The notes: generated by a model not told the origin, from the sequence alone. Shown: positions 23,028-37,660, numbered from the stretch's first letter. The stretch is 56,327 bases of DNA from an uncultured Candidatus Saccharibacteria bacterium (GCA_964469335.1 CAYXYK010000005.1:1-56327); one strand, 5' to 3'. A program made the numbers and translations.

Positions 23028-23076
23028 GAAAACGCCCGAACATGTCGGGCGTTGTGGGTCTCGCGGTGGAGACGGG
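23028..23076 (-). repeat. Cassette junction type I (terminator plus GTCTC hairpin), orphan copy
   Basis: AACGCCCGAACATGTCGGGCGTTGTGGGTCTCGCGGTGGAGACGGG, near-identical to 23701 and 24517. Confidence 0.85.
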
Positions 23077-23094
23077 TGGGGAATATGTATTAGT

Positions 23095-23123
23095 TTGACG
23101 GAAGCTATATCGTATGGTAACGT
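23095..23123 (+). promoter_or_regulatory. Sigma70 promoter
   Basis: TTGACG-17 nt-TAACGT. Confidence 0.65.
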
Positions 23124-23164
23124 TTTCGTCAGTTCATAGTCCCCATTTCGCGAAAGGAATACCC

Positions 23165-23641
23165 ATGCCGAAGATCGAGTATGTGCTCTGGTGGCTCGAG
23201 GTCGCGTCACAAGAGATGCTGAGTGATCCCAAGAGCGTGCTCCACAGTCACACGCATCCGAACTACAGTGGCGGGAAACACGGTTGGGAACAGGAGATTC
23301 ATGAGATCTACTTGCACCCAGAGACCCTTGAGGAGTGGCTCTTGGCATGCGAAGTCAAGGCGACCCTCGAGGAAGCATTCAAGAGGTGCGTCGATGCCGC
23401 GCGCACCCCTCGCGACTTTTGCGGCACGTTCATCACATTCGACCCGTTCGACATCGGTGAGGTGTATCGGCTTGCGAGCTTGCTCGCGCTCCGCGACCCA
23501 CGCCATGTTGCAGCCAGCAAGGTCATGATGAATGGCTGGTGCTGCCGCCGCGGCAACTGCGCTGTCGACGATTCCTTGCTGCGACAAGTCCGCAAGGGTT
23601 TCGCTGGCTCGATGATCCCAACGAAAGAGTTCTCGTTGTGA
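23165..23641 (+). CDS. Hypothetical protein
   Basis: SD GAAAGGA before ATG 23165; own promoter; palindromic terminator at 23644-23680. Confidence 0.7.
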   Translation: MPKIEYVLWWLEVASQEMLSDPKSVLHSHTHPNYSGGKHGWEQEIHEIYLHPETLEEWLLACEVKATLEEAFKRCVDAARTPRDFCGTFITFDPFDIGEVYRLASLLALRDPRHVAASKVMMNGWCCRRGNCAVDDSLLRQVRKGFAGSMIPTKEFSL

Positions 23642-23643
23642 TC

Positions 23644-23680
23644 GTGTCCCCATCTCACGCGTGAGATGGGGACACTTTTG
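23644..23680 (+). terminator. Perfect palindromic terminator
   Basis: GTGTCCCCATCTCACG-CGTGAGATGGGGACAC-TTTTG. Confidence 0.75.
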
Positions 23681-23700
23681 TTAACTGCTGAATAAAAAAC

Positions 23701-23746
23701 GAACGCCCGAACTTGTCGGGCGTTGTGTGTCTCGCGGGGGGACGGG
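23701..23746 (-). repeat. Cassette junction type I / terminator of the 23747 gene
   Basis: AACGCCCGAACTTGTCGGGCGTTGTGTGTCTCGCGGGGGGACGGG directly after the stop. Confidence 0.85.
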
Positions 23747-24439
23747 TCAGTGGGGTGACGGGTAGTCCTTGCTCGTGAAGGCGTTGCCTGTCGCGGGGTC
23801 GACGAGGTAGAAGAAGCAGCCGTCTTCCTTGGTGCCGTCGGTCTTGGTGTAGATGAGCGGGATGCCGTCTGCATTCTTGCACGGCTCGAGCGTTGCGGGG
23901 TGGATGAGCACATCGTGCCCGAGCTCCTCGCGCCAGGTTGAGCGGGTGCGGGCGCGTTCGATGCGCGTGCCTTCGCGGAGGCCGATGCCCCAGTGATCTG
24001 CCATTGATTGAATGCCGGCGTAGTTCTTCACGAACACTTCGTCCACGATATCGGAGTGGGTCTCCCTGTTGAGTGCGATCTCCGGCGGCGTGCGCGGTTT
24101 TGCGGCGATCATCGCCACCTCGAGGGCGAGTGCGACCATGCCGGGCTCTCGGTCGAAGTGGGATGCGAGCGCGATGATGGAGTTCTTCGGGCTCGCACCG
24201 GCGCCGTGGCATTTCCACATCCAGCTGCTTGCCATCGAGATGGCACGCAGGGCGTTGTCGCCGTCGCCATCGCCATTCGAGATGAAGCTGAACCCGCCGC
24301 GCTGCATGAATGCGAACGGATTGAACTTTTCCGGCTTGATGCCAGGTGCCCAGTGCTCGTAGACGTAGATCGCATCTGCGGGGGTTGCGAATCCGCTGGC
24401 TTCACCGAAGAAAAGCATTTGCAGCAAGTTGGTACTCAT
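23747..24439 (-). CDS. Hypothetical protein
   Basis: SD GAAAGGG, strong codon bias, TTGACA at 24508-24503 upstream. Confidence 0.75.
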   Translation of the reverse strand: MSTNLLQMLFFGEASGFATPADAIYVYEHWAPGIKPEKFNPFAFMQRGGFSFISNGDGDGDNALRAISMASSWMWKCHGAGASPKNSIIALASHFDREPGMVALALEVAMIAAKPRTPPEIALNRETHSDIVDEVFVKNYAGIQSMADHWGIGLREGTRIERARTRSTWREELGHDVLIHPATLEPCKNADGIPLIYTKTDGTKEDGCFFYLVDPATGNAFTSKDYPSPH

Positions 24440-24516
24440 ATGAGGCCCTTTCCAATGAGCGAGTTGAAATTCCAAATATAGTTCTACGGTATTTCCTCAA
24501 TGTGTCAATAAAAACC

Positions 24517-24560
24517 AACGCCCCGGGTGGGGCGTTGTGGGGTCTCGCGGGGGAGACGGG
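24517..24560 (-). repeat. Cassette junction type I
   Basis: AACGCCCCGGGTGGGGCGTTGTGGGGTCTCGCGGGGGAGACGGG; T tract abuts TTGACA. Confidence 0.85.
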
Positions 24561-24676
24561 GTAAGGACACGATACATTACGATGCCTTTCCTCCGATATC
24601 CAGATGTGTTCGCCCTCCCGCTTTGCCTTGGGGATAACGTATTGGAGCTTTTTTATCGATATGAGACAGTGAAAGT

Positions 24677-25879
24677 ATGAAACAAACACTTTTTGTGCTC
24701 TTTGTGGCTTCGCTCATGTTCGCAAGTCCGTCGTTTGTTGTAGCACAAGAGGAAGTGGTTGCTGAACCAGTCATTGAGACTCAGGTTTCGGAGGAAGTAC
24801 CACCGCCGGAAATCGAAGCGAAAGGAACGCTGATCATAAAAGCAGCGTTTTCGGATGGAAGTGTTCCGCAGGAATTGCTCAATGATATGTGGTACAGAGT
24901 CTCTGATGTGTTTCAGAGTTACGACAGTCCCGCTGAATTATATAACTCCTACCGCTTTTCAGGTGAAGGGAAAGCGTTCCAACTCAGGAGGGGGATATAT
25001 AAGATCGAATATCTCAATCAAGGGAAATATCTCTATGCGTATACCAAAGATAACTGTGACAGCGTCTCCATTTTCCCTGGGTCCGTTGAGACATGCCTCT
25101 TCACGTTCGATAAAGCCAGCGGAGAGGAACGCAACGAATACGCGCTCTCCAACAGAGAAATAACCGGTTTACTCAAATTCGGCCTCTACATTCTTCTAGC
25201 GGTCATAATTGTGATATCGCTTCAGCGGTTGATAAAAAAAGCTGCTCAAAAAGCAGCAGTCATTCGCACCAGCATCCCCAAAGCTGATCAACTGCCAATA
25301 GCTGGTCCTATTTCAGAAGTCACATCTTCTGTTGAGCAGACCGCATCAGAAGTTGCTGATGCGCTGGGATCAGGCATAAAAGAGTTATTGCCGCCGGAGG
25401 CGAATGAAACACTTTCACGTTTGGCAAGCGTAGACCCAAGGCTCATTCTCACTGGTTCTGTGGTCAGTTATGTCGTGTCACTTTTCCTTCCCGCGATAAT
25501 AGAGGAGGGTGGCCAATCGATGTACGGAATCTATGTGCTCGCAGTCGGATTGTTGGGTGTGTTGTTCTTGGTCGGAATACCATGGCTTGCGAACCTGTTC
25601 TTTTTCCTTGGATTCATTGAATCTCGCGGCAAAGGAAAAGGGAATCGTTCCCCGATTGCGCTTGCCGCTCTTGCTGTCATCTTCGGACTTTCGTCGTTCA
25701 TCGTGACTGCTATTCCGTATGACTCAGGCTCTACTTCTATCGCCTACTACGGTCCAGGTTTCTATTTTTGGATCTTGGCATTCATCCTCCAGCTTTGGTA
25801 CTTCATCCTTCAGCGCAAAATGCTCAAAGGTGCCGCAGCGTCTCAAGAAAAACCCGACAGTACTTCCTCCGCTGGTTGA
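24677..25879 (+). CDS. Hypothetical exported/membrane protein
   Basis: Signal peptide, extracellular beta domain, internal TM and C-terminal 4-TM bundle. Confidence 0.75.
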   Translation: MKQTLFVLFVASLMFASPSFVVAQEEVVAEPVIETQVSEEVPPPEIEAKGTLIIKAAFSDGSVPQELLNDMWYRVSDVFQSYDSPAELYNSYRFSGEGKAFQLRRGIYKIEYLNQGKYLYAYTKDNCDSVSIFPGSVETCLFTFDKASGEERNEYALSNREITGLLKFGLYILLAVIIVISLQRLIKKAAQKAAVIRTSIPKADQLPIAGPISEVTSSVEQTASEVADALGSGIKELLPPEANETLSRLASVDPRLILTGSVVSYVVSLFLPAIIEEGGQSMYGIYVLAVGLLGVLFLVGIPWLANLFFFLGFIESRGKGKGNRSPIALAALAVIFGLSSFIVTAIPYDSGSTSIAYYGPGFYFWILAFILQLWYFILQRKMLKGAAASQEKPDSTSSAG

Positions 25880-25885
25880 TGCACA

Positions 25886-25914
25886 AACAAAAACGCCCCA
25901 GGTGGGGCGTTGTG
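25886..25914 (-). terminator. Junction type I terminator (partial copy)
   Basis: AACGCCCCAGGTGGGGCGTTGTG between convergent genes. Confidence 0.75.
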
Positions 25915-25918
25915 AGTA

Positions 25919-26668
25919 TCAGCGTTTGATGCCGAGTGCGGTGCGGACGGTGACCTTGCGCTCGATCATCCCGTCGACGAGGAAGCCTCTGCAATATGCT
26001 TCGAGCGCATCAGTTGCAGCGGCGACTCGCTCCTGTGGGATGAGGTTCCATAGGCTGACCGAGCGGAGGTAGTCCATCATCGCGGGGAGCGTGAGCCACT
26101 CGCTGACATGGACAGGGAACTCCGATACGGTATGGAATCCTCCTGCCAACAGGAGTTCTCCGGGGACGTAGTTTGCCTTCGCGTTCGGGAGCGGTCCGTC
26201 GACGAAGCACGAGAGGCAAGTGCGAAATCCCACTCGAAACTCGGTCTCGTCGTTCTTGTTCACCACCATCAAGACTCCGCTCGGGACGAGGACGCGCACG
26301 ATCTCTGCCACTGCGCGTGCGTTCGTGAACCAATGGAACGAACTGAACGCGGTCACTGCTTCGAATGACGCATCGAGGAGGGGGAGTACTTCGGTCGGCG
26401 CGGTGAGATAGATGATCGAACCATCATTCACCCGCATCGCCTCTCTCACCATCAAGGGATCGATGTCGGTGCCGATGACTTCTGCGCCCCGGGCACGTAG
26501 TTCGCGCGAGGCGATACCCGTGCCGCACCCGACGTCGAGTATTCGCGGGGTGTCTGTGTCGAAATGCTCCCACAGCCAGTCATAGACTTCGTCAGGGAAC
26601 CCGCTGCGGGCAGTGTTGTATTCGGTACTCCTTGAACCGAATTGGCCATAACCGCTTTCAATGTGCAT
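25919..26668 (-). CDS. Class I SAM-dependent methyltransferase (Methyltransf_11-like)
   Basis: YNTARSGFP, ILDVGCGTG, VIGTD, AFSSFHWF and RVLVPSG motifs; SD GAAAGGAAG. Confidence 0.9.
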   Translation of the reverse strand: MHIESGYGQFGSRSTEYNTARSGFPDEVYDWLWEHFDTDTPRILDVGCGTGIASRELRARGAEVIGTDIDPLMVREAMRVNDGSIIYLTAPTEVLPLLDASFEAVTAFSSFHWFTNARAVAEIVRVLVPSGVLMVVNKNDETEFRVGFRTCLSCFVDGPLPNAKANYVPGELLLAGGFHTVSEFPVHVSEWLTLPAMMDYLRSVSLWNLIPQERVAAATDALEAYCRGFLVDGMIERKVTVRTALGIKR

Positions 26669-26759
26669 GATCTTCCTTTCGGTAGTTGTACTGTCTGCAT
26701 CCTAAACCTCAGCTCCCCGAATAACAAGAATGTCCCGCCGGGTGGCGAGACATTCATGC

Positions 26760-26942
26760 TTAACCTTGCTCTTTTCCTTGTTTCCAAACATCGATCGGAA
26801 CGAGCGTTCCATTTGGTTGCTTGACGTATGTTGCTCGTCCGCCCCCATCCTGTTGAAGATGAGCCAAGCTCTCACCTTCGTTGAACAACCAAGAGTTACC
26901 CTCGGGGTCGCGGAATCCTCCTTCATTCTCTTCGTAAAGCAT
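26760..26942 (-). CDS. Hypothetical 60-aa protein
   Basis: MLYEENEGGFRDPEG... reads as a plausible small protein; AGGAGG lies 19-24 nt upstream, too far for a typical SD; followed by a hairpin at 26728-26755. Confidence 0.45.
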   Translation of the reverse strand: MLYEENEGGFRDPEGNSWLFNEGESLAHLQQDGGGRATYVKQPNGTLVPIDVWKQGKEQG

Positions 26943-27142
26943 ATGTTCCGGCAGTGCGCCTCCTGGTCTCTCTGGCATAGTGATTATGGTTGTATTAATC
27001 GTCCTATACGTGAAAGTATAGTACTGGTATTCCTGCAGGCAAAAATGGCACTACGAGCGGGGTGGTACATTACGAACATGCCAAAGAAAACCATCCACGA
27101 GCCATGGTAAAATACGGACAATTTATCATTAGCATCACTCAT

Positions 27143-27355
27143 ATGAAATTCGCGAAATTTATGTCAGGGTCAGCAGGGAGATCGCTGCGTGCGATCGTCG
27201 GCGCATTGCTCGTCTGGTGGGGCGTAACGATGGGAACCACAGTCGGCTACGCTGTCGCCATATTCGGACTGGTCGCGATCGCGTCAGGAGTTTTCAACTT
27301 TTGCCTGATCGCTCCGCTGCTTTCGGCACCGTTCTGGGGTAAAGACATCAAGTAG
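27143..27355 (+). CDS. DUF2892 (YgaP-like) membrane protein
   Basis: GR.LRAIVGALL...GLVAIASGVFNFCLIAPLL pattern. Confidence 0.8.
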   Translation: MKFAKFMSGSAGRSLRAIVGALLVWWGVTMGTTVGYAVAIFGLVAIASGVFNFCLIAPLLSAPFWGKDIK

Positions 27356-27526
27356 ATGGACGACAAGAAGGCGATCGAGGTGCTCAAGCAGTTGGTCGAG
27401 AAGGACTCGCTGAGTCCCGAAGAGAAAGAGGCGCTAACAACCGCGCTCGGAGTACTCATGCTCACGGTGAATGCGAGCGAGAGTTACTTGCGCCAACTCA
27501 AAGCGAAACGCGAACGGATGAGATGA
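27356..27526 (+). CDS. Hypothetical 56-aa helical protein
   Basis: MDDKKAIEVLKQLVEKDSLSPEEKEALTTALGVL...; ATG directly after the upstream TAG; not in the ORF track. Confidence 0.65.
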   Translation: MDDKKAIEVLKQLVEKDSLSPEEKEALTTALGVLMLTVNASESYLRQLKAKRERMR

Positions 27527-27565
27527 CGCTGAGACTCTTGCCTCATCTGAGATATACTGATGCTC

Positions 27566-28861
27566 ATGAATGAAGCAAAACGAGGAGAGGCTCAGTATTG
27601 GTGGAAGAACGCGACCATCTATGAGCTATACGTCGACAAATTCGCCGGTGACTTCAAGGGGCTAACGACAAAGCTCGACTACCTCGTTTCACTTGGAATA
27701 AATACGCTCCATATCCTCCCGCATTATCCGTCTCCGATGATCGATGAGGGGTATGATATCACCGACTACCGCAATGTTCGTCCTGAGCTCGGGACACTCG
27801 ATGACATGCGGGAGTGTATCGCACAGGCAAAAGCTCGCGGTATACATATCATCCTCGACATGGTACTCAACCATGTCTCTTCGCAGCACCCGTGGTTCAT
27901 TGCAGCGCGCTCATCAAAAGATGATACCAAAAGGGGATATTTCCTCTGGAGCGAAACAGGAACCGAGTACCCAGACTCGCTCAATGCGTTTCCTGACATC
28001 AAGCCATCGAACTGGATAGCCGATCCTCTCACCGGCGACTTTTATTTCGCAACTTTCTACCCCGAGCAGCCGGATCTCAACTGGGATAACCCAGAGGTCG
28101 TGGAAGGCATGCTCGCTAACATGGATTTCTGGGCTGAAATGGGAGTGGACGGATTTCGGCTCGACGCTGCTTGTTTCCTCATCAAGCGTGCCGGAACGAA
28201 TTGCAGGGGATTGCCGGAGACTCATGCGATGATCAAACGTGTCCGCAAACATCTCGATGAGAAGTACCCGCGCGGAGTTGTGCTGCTCGGGGAAGCAGCA
28301 CAAAGCATCGAAGAGACGAAAGCGTATTTCGGCGACGGGGATGAGTGTCAGTTGATGTATAATTTCCCGCTCATGGCTGAGATGTGGCTTTCATTGAAAG
28401 ATGGGAATCCTTCCGCAGCGAGACGGATGTCAGAGCTCTCAAATGGAATTCCCGAGACTTGTGAATGGGCGACCTTTGTTCGGAATCATGATGAGATCGA
28501 GCTCCGCTTTCTCGAGTCTGCCGAAGTGAGATCAGGATTGCTCGATTTTTTGGATCCTGCAAAGGAATATCTTTTCAACAAGGGTGTCGCAACATCGAAA
28601 CGTATCGCCAGTATATTCACGGATAAGAAAGATATGCTCGCTGCATTCGAACTTCTCTACGCTCTCCCTGGTGCTCCGGTCATGTATTACGGAGACGAGA
28701 TCGGAATGCGAAATCTTCCCGTTATGGTCGGCATCGTCGATACGCGAAAATATGTACGCGGCCCGTTCGACTGGGTCGAGGCAGAGAGGCAGGAGGAGGA
28801 TCCCTCTTCTTTGCTCGTTGAGGTGAGAAGAGTGATCGCGAATCGCAACACTTCTTTATAA
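27566..28861 (+). CDS. GH13 alpha-amylase family, trehalose synthase (TreS)-like
   Basis: DEGYDITDY, DMVLNHVSSQHPWF, QPDLNWDNP; catalytic GFRLDA, LLGEA and RNHDE; lacks the C-terminal beta domain. Confidence 0.88.
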   Translation: MNEAKRGEAQYWWKNATIYELYVDKFAGDFKGLTTKLDYLVSLGINTLHILPHYPSPMIDEGYDITDYRNVRPELGTLDDMRECIAQAKARGIHIILDMVLNHVSSQHPWFIAARSSKDDTKRGYFLWSETGTEYPDSLNAFPDIKPSNWIADPLTGDFYFATFYPEQPDLNWDNPEVVEGMLANMDFWAEMGVDGFRLDAACFLIKRAGTNCRGLPETHAMIKRVRKHLDEKYPRGVVLLGEAAQSIEETKAYFGDGDECQLMYNFPLMAEMWLSLKDGNPSAARRMSELSNGIPETCEWATFVRNHDEIELRFLESAEVRSGLLDFLDPAKEYLFNKGVATSKRIASIFTDKKDMLAAFELLYALPGAPVMYYGDEIGMRNLPVMVGIVDTRKYVRGPFDWVEAERQEEDPSSLLVEVRRVIANRNTSL

Positions 28862-28893
28862 AAAAGCACCCGCCGGGTGGCGGGGCTTGGGGG
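28858..28893. repeat. 36-bp direct repeat (junction type II), left copy
   Basis: ATAAAAAAGCACCCGCCGGGTGGCGGGGCTTGGGGG, identical at 29935-29970. Confidence 0.92.
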
Positions 28894-28905
28894 AAGTTGG
28901 CTTTG

Positions 28906-29340
28906 CTACGGATTCTCGCCGTAGGTCTTGAGCACTTCGATGAACGGATAGTGCTTGCCGCTGAAGGCGTAGCCTCGGATGATGTCCTTCATCCCGCGGT
29001 ATTCGTCGTCGTAACCGAAGTTGAAGGAGATGCGGTTCGACCACCACCAGTAGCGGAAGCCTTGAGTGGCGACGAACTCTCTGTACGCTTCACGCTTGAA
29101 CTCGACCAGCTTGCATCCGACATCACGCCCGCTGGTTGGCACGCACACGCGCTGTGGGGTGGTGTCGATGACCGACACCGACACCCAGGGCGCACTGATA
29201 TGCCAACCACTGTCTTGCAATGTCAGCGTTCCGTACAGCCGATTCCATGCGATGCCGGCCTCGATAGGCTCGGTGTAGTTCACGAACATGAGGTAGAAGA
29301 CGAGGATGCCTCCGACCATTGCGGCAATGAGCCGCTTCAC
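28906..29340 (-). CDS. Hypothetical TM-anchored protein, SPFH-N-like, paralog 2
   Basis: GTG start overlapping the upstream TGA; GIAWN..G..SGWH..PWV.V..ID..P..VC...CKLV.F. Confidence 0.75.
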   Translation of the reverse strand: MKRLIAAMVGGILVFYLMFVNYTEPIEAGIAWNRLYGTLTLQDSGWHISAPWVSVSVIDTTPQRVCVPTSGRDVGCKLVEFKREAYREFVATQGFRYWWWSNRISFNFGYDDEYRGMKDIIRGYAFSGKHYPFIEVLKTYGENP

Positions 29341-29837
29341 TTCGTGACCTCGTCGCTGGTGTTCTTCTTGATGATGAGGAACGGGTAGTCGGTGCCCTTG
29401 TCGTCGTACGCGTACACCTTGAGGATCTCGCAGAACTGTGTCGTGCAGCCTTGGATCCCGACGGTCGTGTTGCCCGGGCCGGCATAGTCGCCGCGGCCGT
29501 GCCACGACAGGAACAGGTCGAGACCCTTCGGGTTGAACTGAACCAGTTTGCAGTTGAGGACACGGCCGTTCGCGCTGATGCAGACCTGCATGGGGCGCAG
29601 GTCGATGGTGTCGACCTCGGTGATCAGGGGAATCGCTTTCACGTATCCGGTCCCTTCGACGAGGGTGATCTTGCCGCCGCCCCACTTGTTGAAGGCGTAG
29701 GCGAGCTGGTACGAGTCGACGTACTTGTAGCAGGCGGCGAAGTACACCAGCCCGAGAAGCGCCAGTCCCACAGCCAGGCCGATGACCCAGACCACGAGCT
29801 TCCCGAAGAAGGAAGTAGGCATTTGGACGTTATCCAT
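29337..29837 (-). CDS. Hypothetical TM-anchored protein, SPFH-N-like, paralog 1
   Basis: SD AAGGAG; shares IDLRP..VC....CKLV.F and YA...YPFL with the downstream paralog. Confidence 0.78.
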   Translation of the reverse strand: MDNVQMPTSFFGKLVVWVIGLAVGLALLGLVYFAACYKYVDSYQLAYAFNKWGGGKITLVEGTGYVKAIPLITEVDTIDLRPMQVCISANGRVLNCKLVQFNPKGLDLFLSWHGRGDYAGPGNTTVGIQGCTTQFCEILKVYAYDDKGTDYPFLIIKKNTSDEVTK

Positions 29838-29906
29838 CAAATTCTCCTTGTTGCGGTTGTGAAGTGTAACAGTAGCCAACTTTTGAAGGTGCTGTTAGCT
29901 GTTTCA

Positions 29907-29935
29907 ATTATACTATATTTTTGTTATAAAGTCAA
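29907..29935 (-). promoter_or_regulatory. Near-consensus sigma70 promoter fused to the junction terminator
   Basis: TTGACT-17 nt-TATAAT on the minus strand. Confidence 0.85.
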
Positions 29936-29970
29936 TAAAAAAGCACCCGCCGGGTGGCGGGGCTTGGGGG
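29935..29970. repeat. 36-bp direct repeat (junction type II), right copy
   Basis: Identical to 28858-28893. Confidence 0.92.
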
Positions 29971-29988: not shown

Positions 29989-30624
29989 TCATTTTTCTGC
30001 GGTGGGACGATCGTTGCTTTCACCGTAGCTTCCTGTGTCTTCCGCATCGCTTTTTTCGAACAGCGAAAGTCGTGCTTCGATCGTACGGATCAGCAATTCG
30101 CGTTTTCTCGCCGCATAGAGTGCCGCGACGATCGCACGAAGGACTTCAGCAGTCTCCGCTCTGGATGAGAAACGTCTTGCGACACTCCGGTCGAGCACCA
30201 ATTCGCAGGGGATGTATTCGGGGAGCGCCTCGAAATCGCAGATGCCGCTTTCGTCGGGATAGCGGAGCAGTTCCCGGCCGATTGCATAGCGGAAGAAAGG
30301 TTCGGCGGGAAGTGGCAAGAGTGCGTCGTTGACCCAGATGACAAGTGTTCGTGAGGACTCTTGGCGGAGGACCTCGGAGGTGACAGCGACATCCCCATCG
30401 CCCACGAGCACGCACACGAGTATCTCCGTCTCCGGTGGAACCTCGGCGTTCATCGCGTTGATGAATTTCATGACAGAAGCATTCGTTGGGACTGCAACAC
30501 GCTCTCTGAACGTACACAGTTCATTGCGGGTGTCCTGGCTCATTTTTGTGGCACAGCCGAACAGGATGACAAGCAAGCACAGACCGAAAGTGCCGCGGGC
30601 AAGAACACGTATGTGCGTATGCAT
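29989..30624 (-). CDS. Putative lipoprotein, M48-like fold with degenerate zinc motif
   Basis: Lipobox LFGC; aligns with the 33368 protein but has GRELLR in place of HEFGH; SD AGGAG. Confidence 0.7.
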   Translation of the reverse strand: MHTHIRVLARGTFGLCLLVILFGCATKMSQDTRNELCTFRERVAVPTNASVMKFINAMNAEVPPETEILVCVLVGDGDVAVTSEVLRQESSRTLVIWVNDALLPLPAEPFFRYAIGRELLRYPDESGICDFEALPEYIPCELVLDRSVARRFSSRAETAEVLRAIVAALYAARKRELLIRTIEARLSLFEKSDAEDTGSYGESNDRPTAEK

Positions 30625-30714
30625 GAACTTCTCCTGGTTACGTCAAAGAAGGGACCGTCTCTCTTCATTAACTTCCTGTTCGAAAGTACTGTCAATTTTT
30701 CCACGCAAAAAAAC

Positions 30715-30739
30715 AAGCCCCGCAAATGCGGGGCTCATG
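30715..30739 (-). terminator. Junction type III terminator
   Basis: AGCCCCGCAAATGCGGGGCTCATG, near-identical at 31241. Confidence 0.8.
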
Positions 30740-30743: not shown

Positions 30744-31142
30744 TCAGGTGTGCTTTGGGGTCAAGTCGAATCCATGCGCGTCTTCGGGGTCTTCGCGCGG
30801 AGGTTTCGGCGGGTCACTTCCGGGAGCGATTGCGTACTTCCGCACTTTTGCAGTGAGTTCTCTGACGGCACGTTCGTGAATAGTGACGACGAGGATTCCT
30901 TCTCGAACCATTTCGTCGAGGATGTCGTAGAGTTCAGAGTCCGAGATCTTCGGGAGCGAGAGGATCTTCTCCAGCTCACGGTTGATCTGGAGGCACATCA
31001 ACGGTTCCGGCTGTCGATTGAGGACGTTCCAGATCGGCCGCTTGTAGAGGACCTTCTTTTCTTCGAAGAGGAGTCGTTGTGCGCGCTTGCCTTGCCAGAC
31101 GACGAGGACGATCAGCGCAATGAGTGCGAGTGCATAGAGCAT
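30744..31142 (-). CDS. Hypothetical protein: N-terminal TM plus winged-helix-like domain
   Basis: SD GAAGGAGG; IWNVL..QPEPL..LQI.REL...ISDSELYDIL.EMVREGIL...RKYAI. Confidence 0.65.
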   Translation of the reverse strand: MLYALALIALIVLVVWQGKRAQRLLFEEKKVLYKRPIWNVLNRQPEPLMCLQINRELEKILSLPKISDSELYDILDEMVREGILVVTIHERAVRELTAKVRKYAIAPGSDPPKPPREDPEDAHGFDLTPKHT

Positions 31143-31234
31143 GGTGCCTCCTTCGGGCATATTGAACAGACTGTCTGAACGCTACGTTATCCGATGGCTC
31201 GAGTCAACGACGCCCATGAGCAGCATCGATACAA

Positions 31235-31264
31235 AAAATGAGCCCCGCAGATGCGGGGCTCATG
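31235..31264 (-). terminator. Junction type III terminator
   Basis: AAAAAATGAGCCCCGCAGATGCGGGGCTCATG. Confidence 0.8.
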
Positions 31265-31277: not shown

Positions 31278-31862
31278 TCAGTTCATGACCGGTGCGAAGC
31301 TGATGTTCTTGTCTTCTTCGGAGCGCAGGTCGTCGCCGGCGATACGCTTCAGCGCCGATGTGAGTCGTTCGAGCTCTTCGATGTCGGAGAGGATCATCTT
31401 GTACGTCCTCGCGCTCTGCGGTTCCGGTTGCGTGCGGAAGGCCTGGTCCTCGGTCTTCGTCAGCATGCCGACATAGTCGATCAGCCGGTAGGTCACATGG
31501 TAGGGGACACCGGCGAAGAGCGAACCGAGGTCATCGGGGTGCTTCCGCATGAACGGGACGAGATGGGCGAATACGAACCCCTCGAACTCGCGCGACTCGC
31601 CCGGGCTCTCCGTGAGCGTCTTCAGCATCTTGCCGAGAACCTTGGTGTGGCCATCGGAGTTGATTAGCGCTTTCCCGAGGGGTTCCTGCGTTGCCAGCAG
31701 TACTGCGATGGCGAACACCGTGGTAACGAGCGGACCGATGATGACGACGAAGGTCGAGGCATCGTATCTGCTCAGCGTCGCGATCCAGATGCCCATCACG
31801 ACGATGAAGGTGAGCAGCGTGACGAGCTGTACTCGATTGAACTTCTGCAGAATGGTGTTCAT
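31278..31862 (-). CDS. Hypothetical two-TM protein
   Basis: Two N-terminal TMs, SD GGAG, promoter TTGACG-16-TAATTT. Confidence 0.75.
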   Translation of the reverse strand: MNTILQKFNRVQLVTLLTFIVVMGIWIATLSRYDASTFVVIIGPLVTTVFAIAVLLATQEPLGKALINSDGHTKVLGKMLKTLTESPGESREFEGFVFAHLVPFMRKHPDDLGSLFAGVPYHVTYRLIDYVGMLTKTEDQAFRTQPEPQSARTYKMILSDIEELERLTSALKRIAGDDLRSEEDKNISFAPVMN

Positions 31863-31996: not shown

Positions 31997-32953
31997 ATGA
32001 AAAAACTGTTCGCTGTCATCTGCTTCATGCTGCTCTTCCTCCCGTCACTCTCCTTGGCAGCAACCGTTCGCAACATTGAATTCCCGGTCAATGGTCCCAA
32101 CAGTTTCCGCGACGACTTCGGTGACCCACGCGGAGGAGGAACCCGTTCACACAAAGGTAACGACATCATCGCCGCAAAGATGACCCCGCTCGTCTCCACT
32201 ATCGACGGCAAAGTACTGTTTGTCGTCTCGCCGCAGCCGTCGTGGGGTTATGAGATCTGCCTGATCGATTCCGATGGGTATCAGTATGATTACCTGCATG
32301 TGAACAACGACGTCCCAGGTACTGACAACGGCAAGGGAGGGGAAGGCAACGCCTATGCACCCGGTATCATCACGGGAGCTACGGTGACCAAGGGTCAGCT
32401 CATCGGCTGGGTGGGGGACAGCGGTAATGCCGAAGACACCGTGCCGCATCTCCACTTCGAGATCCATGACCCGAGCGGCATGGCGATCGATCCATACGAC
32501 AGTTTGATTGTTGCATCAGGTCCATATCGCTCGAGCAATGACTCACGCGGTATCACTCCCGACATGCGTGCATCACTCGAGAATGTCATCGACGGACGCC
32601 CCGATGACGTCTTCAAGACAGGTCTTGATGTTGGCTCAAGTGGTGATATCGTCAGGCAGCTGCAGATCTCACTCAAGGTGCTCGGGCTTCTTCAAGCAGA
32701 TAGTGTCACAGGTTACTATGGTCCGAAGACTCGCGCCGCAGTGATGGCATTCCAGAAACGCCAAGGACTCGATCAGCTCGGCAATGTCGGTCCAAAGACT
32801 CGTGCGGCACTCAATCGCGGGCTTGCGTCCGGAGTACTTCAGGAATACAAACCGTTTTACAACGACGCCGAGAAGAAGGCGATCGAAGAAGCACAGCGCC
32901 GTGACGCCGCGGCGAAACTCGATGCGTGGAAGAAGGCGACCGGGCAACTCTAA
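31997..32953 (+). CDS. M23 family peptidase with C-terminal peptidoglycan-binding domain
   Basis: Signal peptide, HKGND and HLHFEI zinc motifs, G.SG..VRQLQ..L...TGYYGPKT..AV..FQ PG-binding motif. Confidence 0.92.
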   Translation: MKKLFAVICFMLLFLPSLSLAATVRNIEFPVNGPNSFRDDFGDPRGGGTRSHKGNDIIAAKMTPLVSTIDGKVLFVVSPQPSWGYEICLIDSDGYQYDYLHVNNDVPGTDNGKGGEGNAYAPGIITGATVTKGQLIGWVGDSGNAEDTVPHLHFEIHDPSGMAIDPYDSLIVASGPYRSSNDSRGITPDMRASLENVIDGRPDDVFKTGLDVGSSGDIVRQLQISLKVLGLLQADSVTGYYGPKTRAAVMAFQKRQGLDQLGNVGPKTRAALNRGLASGVLQEYKPFYNDAEKKAIEEAQRRDAAAKLDAWKKATGQL

Positions 32954-32961
32954 CCTACAGC

Positions 32962-32995
32962 AAAAAAGAACACTACCGGGGATTCCGGTAGTGTC
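32962..32995. terminator. Terminator between convergent genes
   Basis: ACACTACCGG/CCGGTAGTGT stem with an A tract on the left. Confidence 0.75.
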
Positions 32996-32998
32996 AAT

Positions 32999-33259
32999 TC
33001 AGAGGACGAACAGCGTCCCGCCGACAAGGATGGTGAGCGACCAGCCGAATAGCGTCGTACCGTTCACTGCGTTCGGCACCTTGTCGATGAACCTGATACG
33101 CCGCTGTTCGATCGGAACGAAATTCCATGCGAGCACGATTCCGAACAGGGTGAGGGTGAGGAGCCAGGGTATTCCGCTGTAGAGAAAGAACACGACACCG
33201 AGGAGCGAGATCACTCCGTCGAGGATACCGAAGAAGAACGAGCGCCAAGCATCGTACAT
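32999..33259 (-). CDS. Hypothetical small three-TM protein
   Basis: SD GGAGG; hydrophobic. Confidence 0.7.
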   Translation of the reverse strand: MYDAWRSFFFGILDGVISLLGVVFFLYSGIPWLLTLTLFGIVLAWNFVPIEQRRIRFIDKVPNAVNGTTLFGWSLTILVGGTLFVL

Positions 33260-33367
33260 GATGACCTCCCGAAGTGATGGAATGCTACCAACCTTATTCT
33301 TGCGTACTGCGAAAAAATGTCAAACAAAAGCCGCCGGTATGAACCGGCGGCGAGGAACTCCTGTGCG

Positions 33368-33976
33368 TCAATCGAGCGCATGAGTTTTAAGGAGATCGAT
33401 CCGTGACTTCACGAGTGCGATATCCGGTGCGTTCGCGCCCCGTGTCGTCATCAGCTTCATGACTTGTGTGAGTCCGAGCACTGCGGAGTTCTGTCCGACG
33501 ATCTTCGCCGCGAGTCGATCGATCATGTGCTCGCAGTAGAGGTAGTACCGCCGCTCGTTCTCAGGACAGCCTCCTCCGACGATGTGGTGACCGAACTCAT
33601 GCGCGATGACGAAACGCAGTGGTTCATCGTCGAGTTCGTAGAGCAGTTTTCGCTCGAACCACAGCACCAACGTTTGCTGATCCGCGTCATCGCGTATGGT
33701 CGCCGATTCCGCATACGGGAGTTTCTGGTCCGGCATGAGACAGAGAAGCACTCCTCCCTTCGGGGCATGTTGACGTACGACAGACTCGATCACCTTGATG
33801 AACTTCGGGTCTGCGTTCGGGCGTGCAGCAGAGTGTTTGACCGCTTGGCATGCGTTGAGATCACGGACTCGTTGTGCGATCGGGTCGGTACTCGATGCAC
33901 AGGAGACGATCAAGGACAGTGAAGTGATGATGGCGAGCACTGCAAGCATCGCCCGCAATATGCGAGTTGAGGCCAT
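33368..33976 (-). CDS. Putative lipoprotein zinc metalloprotease (M48/M56-like)
   Basis: Lipobox-like IVSC, LRFVIAHEFGH, E..IDRLA; SD AAGGAG. Confidence 0.78.
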   Translation of the reverse strand: MASTRILRAMLAVLAIITSLSLIVSCASSTDPIAQRVRDLNACQAVKHSAARPNADPKFIKVIESVVRQHAPKGGVLLCLMPDQKLPYAESATIRDDADQQTLVLWFERKLLYELDDEPLRFVIAHEFGHHIVGGGCPENERRYYLYCEHMIDRLAAKIVGQNSAVLGLTQVMKLMTTRGANAPDIALVKSRIDLLKTHALD

Positions 33977-34085
33977 GGATGGCTCCTTAAGGGTGAACTA
34001 GGCTAAATCTAGATAACAACAAATATTCTGATAAGTCAACAATAAAAATACCGCAGGCGAGTGACCTGCGGCAGGGTGGTGAGGC

Positions 34086-34625
34086 CTACTTCCTCTTGAG
34101 TTGTCGCCTCATGACGGCGATCACGTCTTCGTGTATTCCCGTCTTCGCAAGTGCCCCACGACGGCGAGCTGCGGCGCGGAGCTTGTCCATGCTGTCGATA
34201 CCGGCGGCAAGAAGATCGTTGGCGCACGACTCGCTGCCCAATGCGGCAAGGAAGCGACGCAGTTCTTCGAGGCCAGGGTGCTTGTGGGCCATGGAGAGCG
34301 AGTGGCTCAGCACCGCATGTACGTGTTCGCTTGCTGTGAGCCGCGATTCGAGTTCGCGAATGCGGAGTGCAAGCTTCTCACGCTCCTCTTCGCTGTGTTC
34401 GATCCGCAGTGAGAGCATCTCAGCGTCGCTGTTCACCGTGATCAGGAGTCGCATCATGAATGCGGCGAACTCCCCGGTGTCCCACATGCACTTCTCGAGC
34501 ACACAGTCGATGAGCTCGAGCTGCGAAAGTACTTCGAGGGGTCCGCGGTTCTCTCCGCATTCTGCGAGAACGCGGATGAGCAGATTGCGTGTGTGCGCAT
34601 CGCGATTTCCTGGTAGTTGGGGCAT
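34086..34625 (-). CDS. Hypothetical coiled-coil protein with SAM-like C-terminus
   Basis: SD AAGGA; heptad-rich middle region; own terminator at 34051-34071. Confidence 0.7.
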   Translation of the reverse strand: MPQLPGNRDAHTRNLLIRVLAECGENRGPLEVLSQLELIDCVLEKCMWDTGEFAAFMMRLLITVNSDAEMLSLRIEHSEEEREKLALRIRELESRLTASEHVHAVLSHSLSMAHKHPGLEELRRFLAALGSESCANDLLAAGIDSMDKLRAAARRRGALAKTGIHEDVIAVMRRQLKRK

Positions 34626-34686
34626 TATCGATCCTTCTTGGTGATGGTTGGGAACTCCAAAGCGTATTCAATACTTTTTCCTAGTA

Positions 34687-34715
34687 TTGTCAAATATGCT
34701 TTTGTAGCGTAACGT
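34687..34715 (+). promoter_or_regulatory. Promoter with a -35 shared back-to-back between strands
   Basis: TTGTCA-17-TAACGT on plus; the same bases read TTGACA on minus. Confidence 0.55.
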
Positions 34716-34751
34716 GTGGGAGGAAATTTGTTCCATCGCAAAGGAAAAGCC

Positions 34752-35036
34752 ATGCAACTCTATGATTCACTTGCCCGCACTCCCGAAGAGATCGACGCCG
34801 CTCTCTCAAAGGACGGTGCCATCTTGGCACTCGACGTGAGTCAGTTCGTCGTAGTTGCCACTCCTTCCGGCATCATGCTTCAGCTACGAAGCCTCGACCC
34901 GGGGCTTCCGATCGCGATCCCTACAAACGCACTCCGCATCATGCTCCCGCACGAAGACCGGTTCACTCCACCACCGCCGGAAGCAGTCCGCTTCGCCGTC
35001 AGTGACCATGTTCGCGTCTGTGGCACCAGTTGCTGA
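34752..35036 (+). CDS. Hypothetical protein
   Basis: SD AAGGA; terminator GAGCACCCC/GGTGCTC-GTTTTTT at 35041-35067. Confidence 0.65.
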   Translation: MQLYDSLARTPEEIDAALSKDGAILALDVSQFVVVATPSGIMLQLRSLDPGLPIAIPTNALRIMLPHEDRFTPPPPEAVRFAVSDHVRVCGTSC

Positions 35037-35111
35037 TCATGAGCACCCCAAGGGGTGCTCGTTTTTTATATCCGTAGGGCGAGTGATATACTGAGCATTC
35101 ATCATCACCCT

Positions 35112-35561
35112 ATGCAACAAGCACAACATCCAGAAAAAAGATTCGTGATACGTTCACGCGCGGTCATCATGCACGAAGACAAGTTGCTCCTTGTTCGGCA
35201 TCCGCATCGTCCCGAGTCGCTCGTGCTTCCCGGTGGGCACCTTGAGTGGGGAGAAGACCCGCGCGAGTGTCTCAGGCGCGAGTTGGTCGAGGAGCTCGGT
35301 ATCGAACCGATCCTCGGACGGCTGTTGTATGTGAATACCTTCATGGACGGGAACAAGCAGTTATTCGAATTCTTCATCGAGGTCACGAATGGAAAGGAGT
35401 ATCGTGATGCGGACGCATATATCGGCATCATGACAAAAGAACTTGCCGAGGTGCTGTGGGTCACGCACGATGTCGATGCGCGCATTCTTCCGCTCGGATT
35501 CGCAAAAGACTTCCGCGAAGGGAAGCTCATCCGTGATGAGACCAGGTTCATCGACGGCTAA
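35112..35561 (+). CDS. NUDIX hydrolase
   Basis: Nudix box PGGHLEWGEDPRECLRRELVEELG. Confidence 0.92.
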   Translation: MQQAQHPEKRFVIRSRAVIMHEDKLLLVRHPHRPESLVLPGGHLEWGEDPRECLRRELVEELGIEPILGRLLYVNTFMDGNKQLFEFFIEVTNGKEYRDADAYIGIMTKELAEVLWVTHDVDARILPLGFAKDFREGKLIRDETRFIDG

Positions 35562-35670
35562 GTAGCAATGTCGTGGGGAGGTAGCCGAGAAGAAACAAGT
35601 AATGATAAAATATGAAGGTGATATGAAGGTCATATGAACCTCAGATATATAAGTTAACTTCAGATTTTTT

Positions 35671-36129
35671 ATGGACGAACAGAATACCAATCAGGCGAAC
35701 ACCGGTGCAGAAGCACAACCCGCTGCTCCGCAGCAGTCCGCACAGGACGACCTCAAGAAGGTCGCGGACCGCGCAAAGGCAGCTGCGACCGGTTTCGATT
35801 TCATGAGACTCTTCGTCGGCAGAGTCGATGCGACGAACTTTCTCTATTCCGTGATCATCGGCGTCGTTGCTGGAGCGGTACTGAGTATGATCCCCGTCAT
35901 CGGCTGGATCATCTCGATCGGACTTGCCGTACTCGGTGTCGGCATGAGTGTTCGCCGACTTCACGATATCAACGTGACCGGTTGGGCATCGATCGCGCTC
36001 TTCATTCCGGTACTCGGTTTGCTCGGCGTGATCTATCTGTGCTGGAAACACGGAGATGTCGGATCGAATCAGTACGGCGGTGTGCCTGATCCGAAGCGCG
36101 ACGTCTTCAAGGCGATCCTCAACACCTAG
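35671..36129 (+). CDS. DUF805 family membrane protein
   Basis: FVGR, VRRLHDINVTGW and G.NQYG..P motifs. Confidence 0.92.
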   Translation: MDEQNTNQANTGAEAQPAAPQQSAQDDLKKVADRAKAAATGFDFMRLFVGRVDATNFLYSVIIGVVAGAVLSMIPVIGWIISIGLAVLGVGMSVRRLHDINVTGWASIALFIPVLGLLGVIYLCWKHGDVGSNQYGGVPDPKRDVFKAILNT

Positions 36130-36151
36130 TCAGTAGAAAAATGGTTCATGA

Positions 36152-36178
36152 AGAAAGCCGCCCGAGGGCGGCTTTTCT
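36152..36178. terminator. Bidirectional terminator
   Basis: AGAAAGCCGCCC-GA-GGGCGGCTTTTCT. Confidence 0.8.
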
Positions 36179-36194
36179 GTCCAGCGAGCAGAGC

Positions 36195-36335
36195 TCAGTG
36201 GAACAGGCGGGTGGCGACGGCGATCAAGATGATCGAGCCGGCCATGGAGAGGATCGCGGTACGCGACCAGTTCACGCTCATGGACAGGAACGAGGTGTGG
36301 CAGGCGATGACGGTCTGGCGGCGGGCTTGGCGCAT
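36195..36335 (-). CDS. Hypothetical 46-aa protein with C-terminal TM
   Basis: SD AAGGAG; promoter TTGACT-17-TAATGT; terminator at 36152; not in the ORF track. Confidence 0.6.
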   Translation of the reverse strand: MRQARRQTVIACHTSFLSMSVNWSRTAILSMAGSIILIAVATRLFH

Positions 36336-36373
36336 GGCAGCTCCTTGGCTGGTTGAAAGAAGGGTACCTCACT

Positions 36374-36402
36374 ACATTACCATAAATACTTAATATAGTC
36401 AA
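36374..36402 (-). promoter_or_regulatory. Sigma70 promoter
   Basis: TTGACT-17 nt-TAATGT. Confidence 0.7.
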
Positions 36403-36417
36403 GTATTTTGTTCCAAC

Positions 36418-36445
36418 AAAAAACCGCCCGGGTGGGCGGTTTTTT
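36418..36445 (-). terminator. Intrinsic terminator
   Basis: AAAAAACCGCCC-GGGT-GGGCGGTTTTTT. Confidence 0.8.
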
Positions 36446-36462
36446 CGAAGGGCTGAAGGATG

Positions 36463-36810
36463 TCAGCGCGGCAGGTCGTGGACGTTGTAGACGCGCCGGT
36501 TCGAGCGGCGGGTGATGAGCGTGATCGCACGCCTGCGTTCGTTCTGGTTGCGAACCAGCGCGGGGTGCAGCAGCCATCGCGACGTCTCGCGCAAGTGCCG
36601 GATGAACTCCTCGGCGCAGCCATCGGGATTGCCGGCGACATGGGCGATCACTTCTTCGATCGCATCGTCGATGCGGATGCTGCCGGCAATCAGGCGCTGG
36701 CCGATCTCGTGTCTGAACTCGCAGAACTTCTTCGGGGGCTCTTTTGCCGCTTGGGGGTGAAAGCCGCGGTGCGCGGCAGGCTTCTCTTGTCGTGCGGTCG
36801 CGAATGACAT
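36463..36810 (-). CDS. Hypothetical protein
   Basis: SD GAAGGAG; promoter TTGACT-17-AACAAT at 36893-36865. Confidence 0.7.
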   Translation of the reverse strand: MSFATARQEKPAAHRGFHPQAAKEPPKKFCEFRHEIGQRLIAGSIRIDDAIEEVIAHVAGNPDGCAEEFIRHLRETSRWLLHPALVRNQNERRRAITLITRRSNRRVYNVHDLPR

Positions 36811-36930
36811 CGATGCTCCTTCTTTCTTCGGTTGTGGTTACGGGCGGGGAACAACTAATCGTCTATTGTTCATGAGTTCAAAATGAAAGTCAAGAGAAAA
36901 AACTACCGCCCGAATCTCGGGCGGTAAGGA

Positions 36931-37197
36931 TCAGATAGGGACGAGTTCGATGCTGATCGAGTTGAATACTGCTTCGTGTACGGCGGCGATATCGGCAGCC
37001 GGAACGAAAACCGGGAAGCGGCGATACTTCGGGTGAGCTTGCGAAACGTCGATTGCACCGCCGAATTCGTTGTAGACCAGGGTGCCGCGTCGTTTTCGGG
37101 TGTAGGGGATCTTGCCGTAGACGCACTCGTCAGAATAGCAGAGCAGGGCCTCTCCCGGACGAGTCTCGGGGTGGATGAAAGGGGTGCGGGTATTCAT
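36931..37197 (-). CDS. Hypothetical protein (HPE...KR.G..Y...G...PVFV family), paralog 2
   Basis: SD AAGGAG; promoter TTGACA-16-TACCAT; terminator at 36904-36926. Confidence 0.75.
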   Translation of the reverse strand: MNTRTPFIHPETRPGEALLCYSDECVYGKIPYTRKRRGTLVYNEFGGAIDVSQAHPKYRRFPVFVPAADIAAVHEAVFNSISIELVPI

Positions 37198-37313
37198 CAG
37201 AACTCCTTGCGAAGTGAAGGGGACCATCTGAGTAAAATGGTACTCTCGCGCGAAAGGGTGTCAATCAAAACGCCACCCCGGTTGGTGTAGGGTGGCGCAG
37301 AGGCGAAGCTGCT

Positions 37314-37580
37314 TCAGTCGGACGGTGCAAGCGGGACCAAAAGCCCCTTTCCTTGCCGATCCTCGAATTCTTCTCGGCTGACGAAGACCGGAACCAGTCG
37401 CTGTTCAGGGATCGTTCCGCCCTGCGGGATCTGCTCACCGCCTTGGTCGTAGCAGATTTGACCTTCGTACTTCATATTCCAGTCGAGCCGACGGAACGCA
37501 CTTCTCGGCATGTTGCCGATGAATACGTAGCCGTCCGGACACTCGGGGTGGATGAGCTTGATGTGCAGGTCCTTGTTCAT
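37314..37580 (-). CDS. Hypothetical protein (HPE...PVFV family), paralog 1
   Basis: SD GAAGGAG; promoter TTGACA-16-TAATCT; terminator at 37271-37297. Confidence 0.75.
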   Translation of the reverse strand: MNKDLHIKLIHPECPDGYVFIGNMPRSAFRRLDWNMKYEGQICYDQGGEQIPQGGTIPEQRLVPVFVSREEFEDRQGKGLLVPLAPSD

Positions 37581-37632
37581 GAGCACTCCTTCGGTGGGTT
37601 GTTCTTTGCTGAGATTACAATGGAATTCTTGA

Positions 37633-37660
37633 TTGTCAAATTTGTCTTTTTTGCTATACT
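37633..37660 (+). promoter_or_regulatory. rnpB promoter
   Basis: TTGTCA-16-TATACT with extended TG. Confidence 0.7.

Follow-up and report, generated by a model that had tools for sequence, protein, structure and literature searches.

The 56,327-nucleotide stretch of DNA analysed here (the window) is contig C5 of the genome of an ultra-small bacterium of Candidatus Lloydbacteria (Paceibacterota/Parcubacteria, Patescibacteria), a member of the candidate phyla radiation (CPR) with a genome of 1.28 Mb in 8 contigs. It is of chromosomal context, carrying nrdJ, rnpB, MurJ, LepA and tRNAs, and its interval between nrdJ (class II ribonucleotide reductase) and rnpB (RNase P RNA) was found to hold about 28 genes over 16.5 kb, organized largely as short transcription units that end in intrinsic terminators, some of them repeated. 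With moderate confidence, this interval is interpreted as an insertion hotspot free of mobile elements, in which a once nearly empty spacer was probably filled unit by unit with accompanying duplication of a terminator module. A sequence-only reading of positions 23028-37660 had described an integrase-free array of expression cassettes and had suggested that it serves as a platform for gene capture and shuffling; the observation and its interpretation were each partly borne out. In what follows, G000 denotes the host genome, C1, C3, C5 and C6 its contigs, and G0xx, L0xx, L113 and L120 the genomes and contigs to which it was compared.

The repeated element was identified as a module of 23-46 nt that comprises, in order from the stop codon, a C-rich spacer, a GC hairpin and a T tract. 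Alignment of module copies with their flanks showed that identity begins shortly 3' of the stop codon and ends abruptly on both sides. Three junction types shared by neighbouring cassettes had been proposed, and all three proved to be real (types I, II and III), but the repeat is the terminator module only, the promoter being excluded from it. Type I is present in four copies, type II in two (36/36 identical) and type III in two (91%), and none of these occurs elsewhere in the genome, so that a genome-wide repeat family was rejected as their source. The repeats are direct and on the same strand, whichever way the genes of the units between them point. Copies A and C of type I lie behind no minus-strand gene, and selection for terminators at gene ends therefore cannot explain their placement. 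Promoters of the array units were alike in consensus only, with the composite layout of stem-loop and promoter present at 9/12 promoters; for type II, a TTGAC box follows just one of its two copies.

Comparison with the closest species, G010 (nrdJ 92% amino acid identity), showed how these copies relate to gene content. G010 possesses one type I copy at the orthologous site with the same GGGGAATAAAAAAC flank, against the four copies of the window, which bracket three extra genes in both orientations; the methyltransferase gene, which ends in type I copy D here, has a different terminator in G010. Likewise, a single type II copy stands behind the lipoprotein gene of G010, against two here that bracket an extra two-gene unit, and type III is present only here, on two genes that G010 is without. 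Module copy number thus tracks gene gain, with one extra copy per gained unit relative to G010. Unit-sized blocks differ between the two genomes at three or more places, the insertion points being spread along the array and not gathered at one end. The genes common to both are colinear (methyltransferase, lipoprotein, M23, 86-aa, 202-aa, 179-aa, 102-aa, NUDIX, DUF805 and two 88-aa genes), as are those common with a second congener, G003. No local terminator families were detected in the nrdJ-rnpB loci of relatives at E <= 1e-4, with one weaker pair found in G010.

The size of the interval itself varies considerably among relatives, in 34/41 of which nrdJ was detected. The nrdJ-rnpB gap measures approximately 0.2 kb in L050, L052, L053, L058 and L113 (Paceibacterota) and 1.1 kb in L056, while in congeners it measures 2.7, 3.8, 6.1, 7.5 and 8.8 kb, as opposed to 16.5 kb here. 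These short gaps, the longer ones in congeners and the still longer one of the window indicate that the array grew in a once nearly empty spacer. Between the same conserved flanking genes, relatives were found to carry different gene sets, and within the array the GC content at third codon positions (GC3) spans 0.23-0.94 between units, a mosaic composition.

All twelve minus-strand TTGAC boxes previously listed were found at their coordinates. Across 23028-37660, 15/19 minus-strand TTGAC words fall in non-coding DNA, which makes up 16% of the stretch (binomial p = 3e-9), a strict finder of hairpins with T tracts gave 1.02 terminators/kb here vs 0.21/kb in the rest of the genome (Poisson p = 7e-7), and TTGAC lies within 20 nt 3' of strict terminators in 6/15 cases here vs 13/260 elsewhere (Fisher p = 1.6e-4), these p-values being post hoc as the region was chosen for its look. 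The array region is also the genome's densest 15-kb window for strict terminators. That each box should follow a hairpin and T tract held for 9/12 boxes, within about 30 nt (24508, 29935, 30695, 31207, 33323, 34039, 36402, 36893 and 37264), and failed at the other three (31949, 34693 and 37639), which lie in divergent promoter regions without a terminator. Almost all units carry a TTGAC box of their own, in many cases followed 16-17 nt later by TAnnnT, and likewise a Shine-Dalgarno site; strong sites of this kind precede most minus-strand genes, as had been stated. Such terminator-then-promoter junctions would in themselves represent ordinary insulation between co-directional, independently expressed genes.

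The unit bracketed by the type II copies, composed of a 166-aa gene and its 144-aa paralogue, was found to occupy two slots in related genomes. The 166-aa gene and its unit are patchy in the genus (4/22 genomes), the gene being widespread in Patescibacteria with >150 homologues. On contig L120, where the unit is 81% identical, it follows a 60-nt flank that in the window adjoins type I copy A (90% identity to 22823-22883), and homology to the unit begins at its -35 box. This arrangement places the two-gene unit in different array slots in related lineages, with the boundary at the seam between terminator and promoter. A relative with 74% identity carries the unit with a different terminator and without flanking repeats, from which it follows that the type II ends of the unit were acquired locally. 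On L032 (93% identical) a type II module lies on either side of the unit, and both modules carry the same variant base.

Further features of this unit were noted. Contig L032 (Logan SRR21621038, 1105 nt) consists of exactly the two-gene unit and begins and ends with an identical 30-nt part of the type II module; these ends could reflect collapse of a flanking repeat, a unit repeated in tandem or a circle. The unit leader at 29838-29934 (AGCTAACAGCACCTT...GTTGGCTACTGTT) is conserved to 74%-identical relatives (upstream regions of L033, L034 and L120), and may be a structured 5' untranslated region. The non-coding 60-nt block at 22823-22883, on the downstream side of type I copy A, shows 90% identity to L120, where coding DNA is only 81% identical; it is kept in L022 and adjoins a tract that is 8% divergent between strains.

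Variation within the species was examined on conspecific contigs (99.2-100% identical) from at least 10 samples (JGI, Logan). All were colinear over 23047-45694, such that none of the cassette gain, loss or reordering anticipated among conspecific genomes was seen, and only 0-1 differences separate strains over 23047-26500. The top of the type I copy A hairpin resembles copy B in the window and copies C/D in other strains. Tracts of 6-8% divergence between otherwise 99% identical strains were located at the 3' end of nrdJ (20431-21158, approximately 6%) and at 22450-22882. Such tracts suggest that homologous recombination with divergent relatives is common, and divergent tracts in the flanks are an expectation of the hotspot model (PMC5635113). 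Cassette-level shuffling was not seen at the within-species time scale, the array being essentially fixed in the species.

These results bear directly on the possibility of an active platform resembling the promoter-early stem-loop (PeSL) cassettes of phages, in which modules would be working handles, units would excise as circles and re-insert at any module, and exchange in the population would be frequent. PeSL cassettes are described from the hyperplastic regions of T4-type phages (Arbiol et al. 2010, PMC2839356; Comeau et al. 2014, PMC4122927), where the element is a composite repeat of a sigma-70 promoter and a stem-loop terminator, and where element-bounded indels and mini-circles arise by recombination between flanking elements (PMC2839356, PMC4122927). 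The analogy with these cassettes, drawn in the sequence-only reading, is apt with respect to layout: in both systems small genes, mostly without known function, lie in a variable region, a sigma-70-type promoter comes immediately after a GC-rich stem-loop terminator, single genes stand between repeated elements, and no dedicated recombinase is known. Active shuffling is unproven. The systems differ in that PeSL elements reside in phage genomes and the array in a cellular CPR chromosome without phage hallmark matches, in that the repeat here comprises stem-loop, T tract and C-rich 5' spacer with promoters outside it, and in that the families here are local (2-7 copies) and lineage-specific. In the window, gained units are bracketed by modules at the species level and one slot change has its boundary at a -35 box, while near-identical strains are without element-bounded indels and the array is fixed.

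We regard an active platform as unlikely, although the documented PeSL precedent (PMC2839356), the direct same-strand modules around units of either orientation, the 36/36 identity of the type II pair, the second slot of the two-gene unit in L120 and the copy A hairpin top, which differs between strains and matches other copies, are consistent with one. The equal ends of L032 fit a cyclic path in the assembly graph or a unit with repeats at its borders, but they are also explicable by repeat collapse at k = 31. Against it stand the colinearity of strains, with no unit missing or moved, the colinearity of genes common with G010 and G003, the position of the promoter outside the repeat, and the failure to find the modules in phage contigs (IMG/VR) or other metagenome contigs. 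What stood of the proposed capture and shuffling platform is the integrase-free accumulation of promoter-gene-terminator units flanked by resident terminator copies, with one unit changing slot; active shuffling was not supported, and a promoter within the repeat did not stand.

Tandem duplication of gene-plus-terminator units, followed by fast protein divergence with hairpins kept by selection, would offer another origin for similar neighbouring terminators. The array does contain three paralogue pairs (25-29% identical), two of them adjacent. Relative to G010, small proteins are 16-53% identical, enzymes and the 88-aa pair 64-83% and junction DNA 57-79%; the small proteins thus evolve very fast, and the older types IV and V keep their stems and not their loops. 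This explanation is nevertheless improbable as a general one. The genes bracketed by type I copies include plus-strand ones and that of a Rossmann-fold methyltransferase, and type II serves both the lipoprotein gene and a gene from an unrelated family that is widespread in Patescibacteria; for types I and II, proteins sharing a module family already differ in fold. In addition, identity of 36/36 that includes loop and spacer, beside dissimilar flanks, is unlike co-duplicated sequence. Duplication with fast divergence may explain some older pairs, but it cannot explain types I and II.

An all-against-all comparison of the genome's 275 terminators identified local same-strand families on genes without detectable kinship, to which 27/275 terminators belong (C6, C3 and C1). 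Six copies of a 45-nt module occur at C6:33022-37308 (L037) and seven copies of a 38-nt module at C3:215916-232280 (L038), in both cases with unrelated small minus-strand genes, and further family pairs are present at C3:139717/140421, C3:134568/135092 and C1:117620/118276. The nrdJ-rnpB array is thus not unique: the genome contains further arrays of this type, each with its own module sequence. Adjacent same-strand terminators were found to have a stem word of at least 6 nt in common in 19/113 pairs vs 2.5% of distant or random pairs (p = 1e-10). An exact-protein look-up returned no strain variants of the C6 array, and its flanking 373-aa gene is patchy across the genus and hence unusable as a conserved anchor.

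Similar terminators could also result from modules spreading alone, as elements similar to repetitive extragenic palindromic (REP) sequences or miniature inverted-repeat transposable elements, or through local gene conversion, independent of gene insertion. The families do share a design that is rare among single-copy terminators: a C-rich 5' tract (CCCC, between stop codon and hairpin) occurs in 15/27 family terminators vs 9/248 single-copy ones, and a CC[AC]CAAG-like word, a motif defined post hoc, occurs in the 5' flank or loop of 4/8 families vs 3/248 singles. A different small element did insert in a terminator tail in this strain. As with REP sequences and their REPIN forms, the modules are short GC-rich palindromes just 3' of stop codons that are able to act as terminators. 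They differ from these in being local single hairpins in one orientation, with an own sequence per array, as REP sequences are dispersed genome-wide. Moreover, no match to PF01797 (Y1 transposase, including the REP-associated tyrosine transposase, RAYT) was found genome-wide, the copies are strictly local and same-strand without target duplications, and type I copies A and C are not at gene 3' ends. The exact rise of copy number with gained units relative to G010 is a poor fit as well, and we give autonomous spread little chance. A REP/RAYT system was rejected as a candidate on the missing transposase and the local copies.

The small element mentioned above (22885-23046), found in this strain only, has partial relatives near tRNA-Gly and tRNA-Arg (45876-45899 and 48241-48298) and at C1:345758-345822, where a terminator lies 140 nt ahead of it. 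Its features suggest a small mobile element with a preference for terminator tails.

Integrons carry an IntI-type tyrosine recombinase beside an array of mostly promoterless cassettes that are expressed from a common Pc promoter, and clusters of attC sites lacking the integrase (CALIN) are defined by attC sites, which are imperfect palindromes of 57-141 nt with R''/L''-L'/R' boxes. The array resembles these in that small genes of one orientation but without kinship each have a similar palindrome behind them, with similarity highest within one array, and its M23/PG-binding (peptidoglycan-binding) peptidase matches endolysin PHROGs, as might be expected of a decayed prophage or island. Scans of the region's proteins against Pfam and PHROG revealed no mobility gene, in agreement with the earlier claim that the array is integrase-free. 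A genome-wide PF00589 search located one tyrosine recombinase, far off at C1:230989. No phage structural, replication or integration genes were detected in the PHROG scans, the only matches being to generic peptidase/endolysin domains and to one family without known function. An origin as a CALIN or a decayed prophage or island is very improbable and already contradicted by tested features: the genome lacks an integron integrase, the units carry promoters of their own, the intrinsic terminators that make up the repeats are perfect GC hairpins of 23-46 nt with T tracts and not attC-like, and insertion points lie along the whole array. As candidates, both the integron/CALIN and the prophage or moron island, for which the PHROG scans gave no prophage signature, were rejected. 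The units share with phage morons the character of autonomous promoter-gene-terminator units inserted between pre-existing genes; the array differs in having no prophage context, and morons are not defined by shared flanking repeats.

The interpretation of the interval as a hotspot without mobile elements has precedents in which one pair of conserved genes encloses a variable gene content, integrases and transposases are lacking and the flanks bear signs of homologous recombination. These are the mobile-element-free hotspots of horizontal gene transfer between conserved core genes, for which crossovers are placed in the flanking core genes and whole blocks are replaced (Oliveira et al. 2017, PMC5635113), and the minimal mobile elements of Neisseria (Saunders and Snyder 2002, as referred to in PMC3787668). 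Internal insertion unit by unit at several positions, together with local terminator duplication, distinguishes the interval from those models, from which both are absent.

The favoured interpretation of unit-by-unit filling would proceed as follows. Self-contained transcription units, each with a sigma-70-type promoter, a Shine-Dalgarno site, one or two open reading frames (ORFs) and an intrinsic terminator, would have accrued in the nrdJ-rnpB interval over species-level time. Whenever a new unit was placed beside an existing terminator, the module would have been duplicated, with the consequence that one terminator sequence closes both the newcomer and its resident neighbour. For the insertion itself we infer short-homology recombination or template switching at the hairpin modules, probably with the cell's housekeeping recombination machinery acting on DNA that was taken up from relatives; a circle carrying a module could also have integrated, as a further candidate route. 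Such a process would be slow, making the interval an accretion zone and not an actively shuffling platform.

Several points weigh against this interpretation. No empty site, circle or presence/absence polymorphism at a module was found among the conspecific contigs that would serve as an intermediate. Strain-level breakpoints had been expected at junctions, but the sole replacement, on contig L024 (JGI 3300045348), in which 43%-GC DNA replaces everything beyond 26856, breaks inside the 72-aa ORF; this is a singleton contig and possibly chimeric. A tract of 5.7% divergence between strains (29215-29967) ends in the upstream type II module and starts inside the 144-aa gene, and so meets a module on one side only. 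The polarity of change (gain here, and not loss in G010) depends on the spacer having been short ancestrally and, for each module, on a single outgroup. With 23-46 nt of homology, the modules are close to the minimum that RecA-type recombination requires, and gene conversion between neighbouring terminators could be an alternative source of similar modules. A donor pool carrying the same modules was not demonstrated: the type III, C6 and C3 module patterns gave 0 matches in IMG/VR, and the type II pattern met only one terminator in JGI metagenome contigs, an unrelated chance match.

On contig L024, positions 1-1522 encode a 173-aa coiled-coil/Cys-rich protein together with proteins of 153 aa and 111 aa, and could be a foreign insertion or a chimeric assembly. 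The other end of this variant was not found, and the 173-aa protein occurs on L024 only.

The coordinates of the features are collected in Table 1. A total of 24 genes were identified in 23028-37660 (15 minus, 9 plus) from gene calls on conspecific contigs and codon scoring of ORFs, in place of the roughly 14 orphan genes, almost all on the minus strand, that had been counted from sequence. The description as orphans was similarly too broad, given the many homologues of the 166-aa gene and the Pfam domains of at least six genes: a SAM (S-adenosylmethionine) methyltransferase, an alpha-amylase, an M23 peptidase with PG-binding domain, a NUDIX protein, a DUF805 protein and a YgaP-like transmembrane (TM) protein, with a weak PadR-like match for a seventh. 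Enrichment in membrane proteins and lipoproteins was confirmed, a hydrophobic segment being present in 17/28 interval proteins and a lipobox in two. The 86-aa, 202-aa and 179-aa units have kept their order relative to G010, with proteins 31-53% identical and junction DNA 65-71% identical, and the second of the 88-aa genes beside rnpB is the most widely shared unit of the array in the genus. The islet directly 3' of nrdJ (21346-22816) has a GC content of 35-44% and a GC3 of 0.23-0.50, and is missing from the same interval of G010.

Table 1. Features of the nrdJ-rnpB interval and its anchors (positions in the window)
Feature	Position	Strand	Evidence or remark
nrdJ (class II ribonucleotide reductase), conserved left anchor	18833..21190	+	Pfam ATP-cone, RNR_Alpha, Ribonuc_red_lgC, RNR-II_ins_dom
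Low-GC islet, four small genes (DUF6864/phrog_32866, then three membrane proteins)	21346..22816	+	Pfam, PHROG matches; outside the coordinates of the sequence-only reading
Small element, approximately 150-162 nt, between hairpin and T tract of type I copy A	22885..23046		Absent from conspecific L022 and L024
Type I copy A, ancestral copy, no longer behind a minus-strand gene	23031..23076	-	Single orthologous copy, same flank, in G010
158-aa gene with own 14-bp-stem terminator (23644-23675), between type I copies A and B	23165..23675	+	Gene call on L022/L024
Type I copy B, terminator of 230-aa gene	23702..23746	-	
230-aa gene, no assigned function, GC3 0.81, promoter TTGACA at 24508	23747..24439	-	
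Type I copy C, in divergent promoter region, T tract abuts -35 box at 24508	24516..24561	-	
400-aa multi-pass membrane protein, between type I copies C and D	24677..25879	+	
Type I copy D, hairpin only, terminator of methyltransferase gene	25892..25914	-	
SAM-dependent methyltransferase (Rossmann-fold)	25919..26668	-	Common to G010 at 64% amino acid identity
Block of 72-aa gene (-), YgaP-like TM protein (+), 56-aa gene (+) and alpha-amylase family enzyme (+)	26760..28861		Not in G010
Type II downstream copy	28858..28893	-	36/36 identical to upstream copy
Two-gene unit: promoter TTGACT-17-TATAAT at 29935, conserved leader, 166-aa gene, 144-aa paralogue	28906..29934	-	
Type II upstream copy, terminator of lipoprotein gene, ancestral position	29935..29970	-	One orthologous copy in G010 behind lipoprotein gene
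Lipoprotein, 211 aa, paralogue of 33368-33976	29989..30624	-	
Type III copy 1	30708..30739	-	
138-aa protein, N-terminal TM segment, weak PadR-like match, between type III copies	30744..31160	-	
Type III copy 2	31233..31264	-	
194-aa membrane protein	31278..31862	-	Missing from the same interval of G010
Secreted M23 peptidase with PG-binding domain	31997..32953	+	Also in G010 (81% amino acid identity) and G019
Three monocistronic units: 86-aa TM protein, 202-aa HExxH lipoprotein, 179-aa protein	32999..34625	-	Terminators 32970-32994, 33330-33351, 34051-34072
Type IV, older similar pair, stems kept but loops not	33330-33351 + 34051-34072	-	
102-aa gene, NUDIX hydrolase, DUF805 membrane protein	34728..36129	+	
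46-aa hydrophobic peptide gene and 115-aa gene, three successive terminators	36154..36926	-	
Type V, older, shared CCGCCC...GGGCGG stem, loops not kept	36154-36175, 36420-36443, 36904-36926	-	First hairpin identical in G010
Tandem paralogues, 88 aa each, 29% identical, adjoining rnpB	36931..37580	-	
rnpB (RNase P RNA, bacterial class A), conserved right anchor	37667..38014	+	Rfam RF00010, 122.7 bits

Two further observations concern gene ends in the window. The gene for the 46-aa hydrophobic peptide (36195-36335; L001 7494-7640) has a GC3 of 0.94, and its terminator hairpin is identical in G010, where the peptide is almost wholly different. A repeat of approximately 90 nt, 88% identical and in the same orientation, is present at 21202-21291 and 44399-44488, directly 3' of the nrdJ and lepA stop codons, and constitutes another class of element at gene ends.

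With their tiny genomes and few recognisable mobile elements, CPR bacteria raise the question of how accessory genes are acquired. Here, the growth of an interval to 28 genes can be traced, with each gain leaving a duplicated terminator. Such duplicated terminators provide a concrete and testable footprint of gene gain without a recombinase, and carry the PeSL idea from phages to cellular chromosomes. Membrane proteins, lipoproteins, cell-wall enzymes and fast-evolving small proteins are abundant among the cargo, and are kinds expected at the surface of a host-attached bacterium. A broader proposal, which we put forward as possible though doubtful, is that CPR/Patescibacteria build integron-like arrays without a recombinase, in which a gene would be inserted at an intrinsic terminator and a specialised module of C tract, hairpin and T tract would be copied in the process (by template switching or by short-homology integration of module-bearing DNA), with cassettes arriving insulated. 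If this were true, the module families, which make up approximately 10% of the genome's terminators, would be the footprint of a general, terminator-targeted accretion mechanism. Should the C-rich terminator module be a specific insertion signal, it would represent a new element of genome plasticity and a practical marker for accessory-gene arrays in metagenomes.

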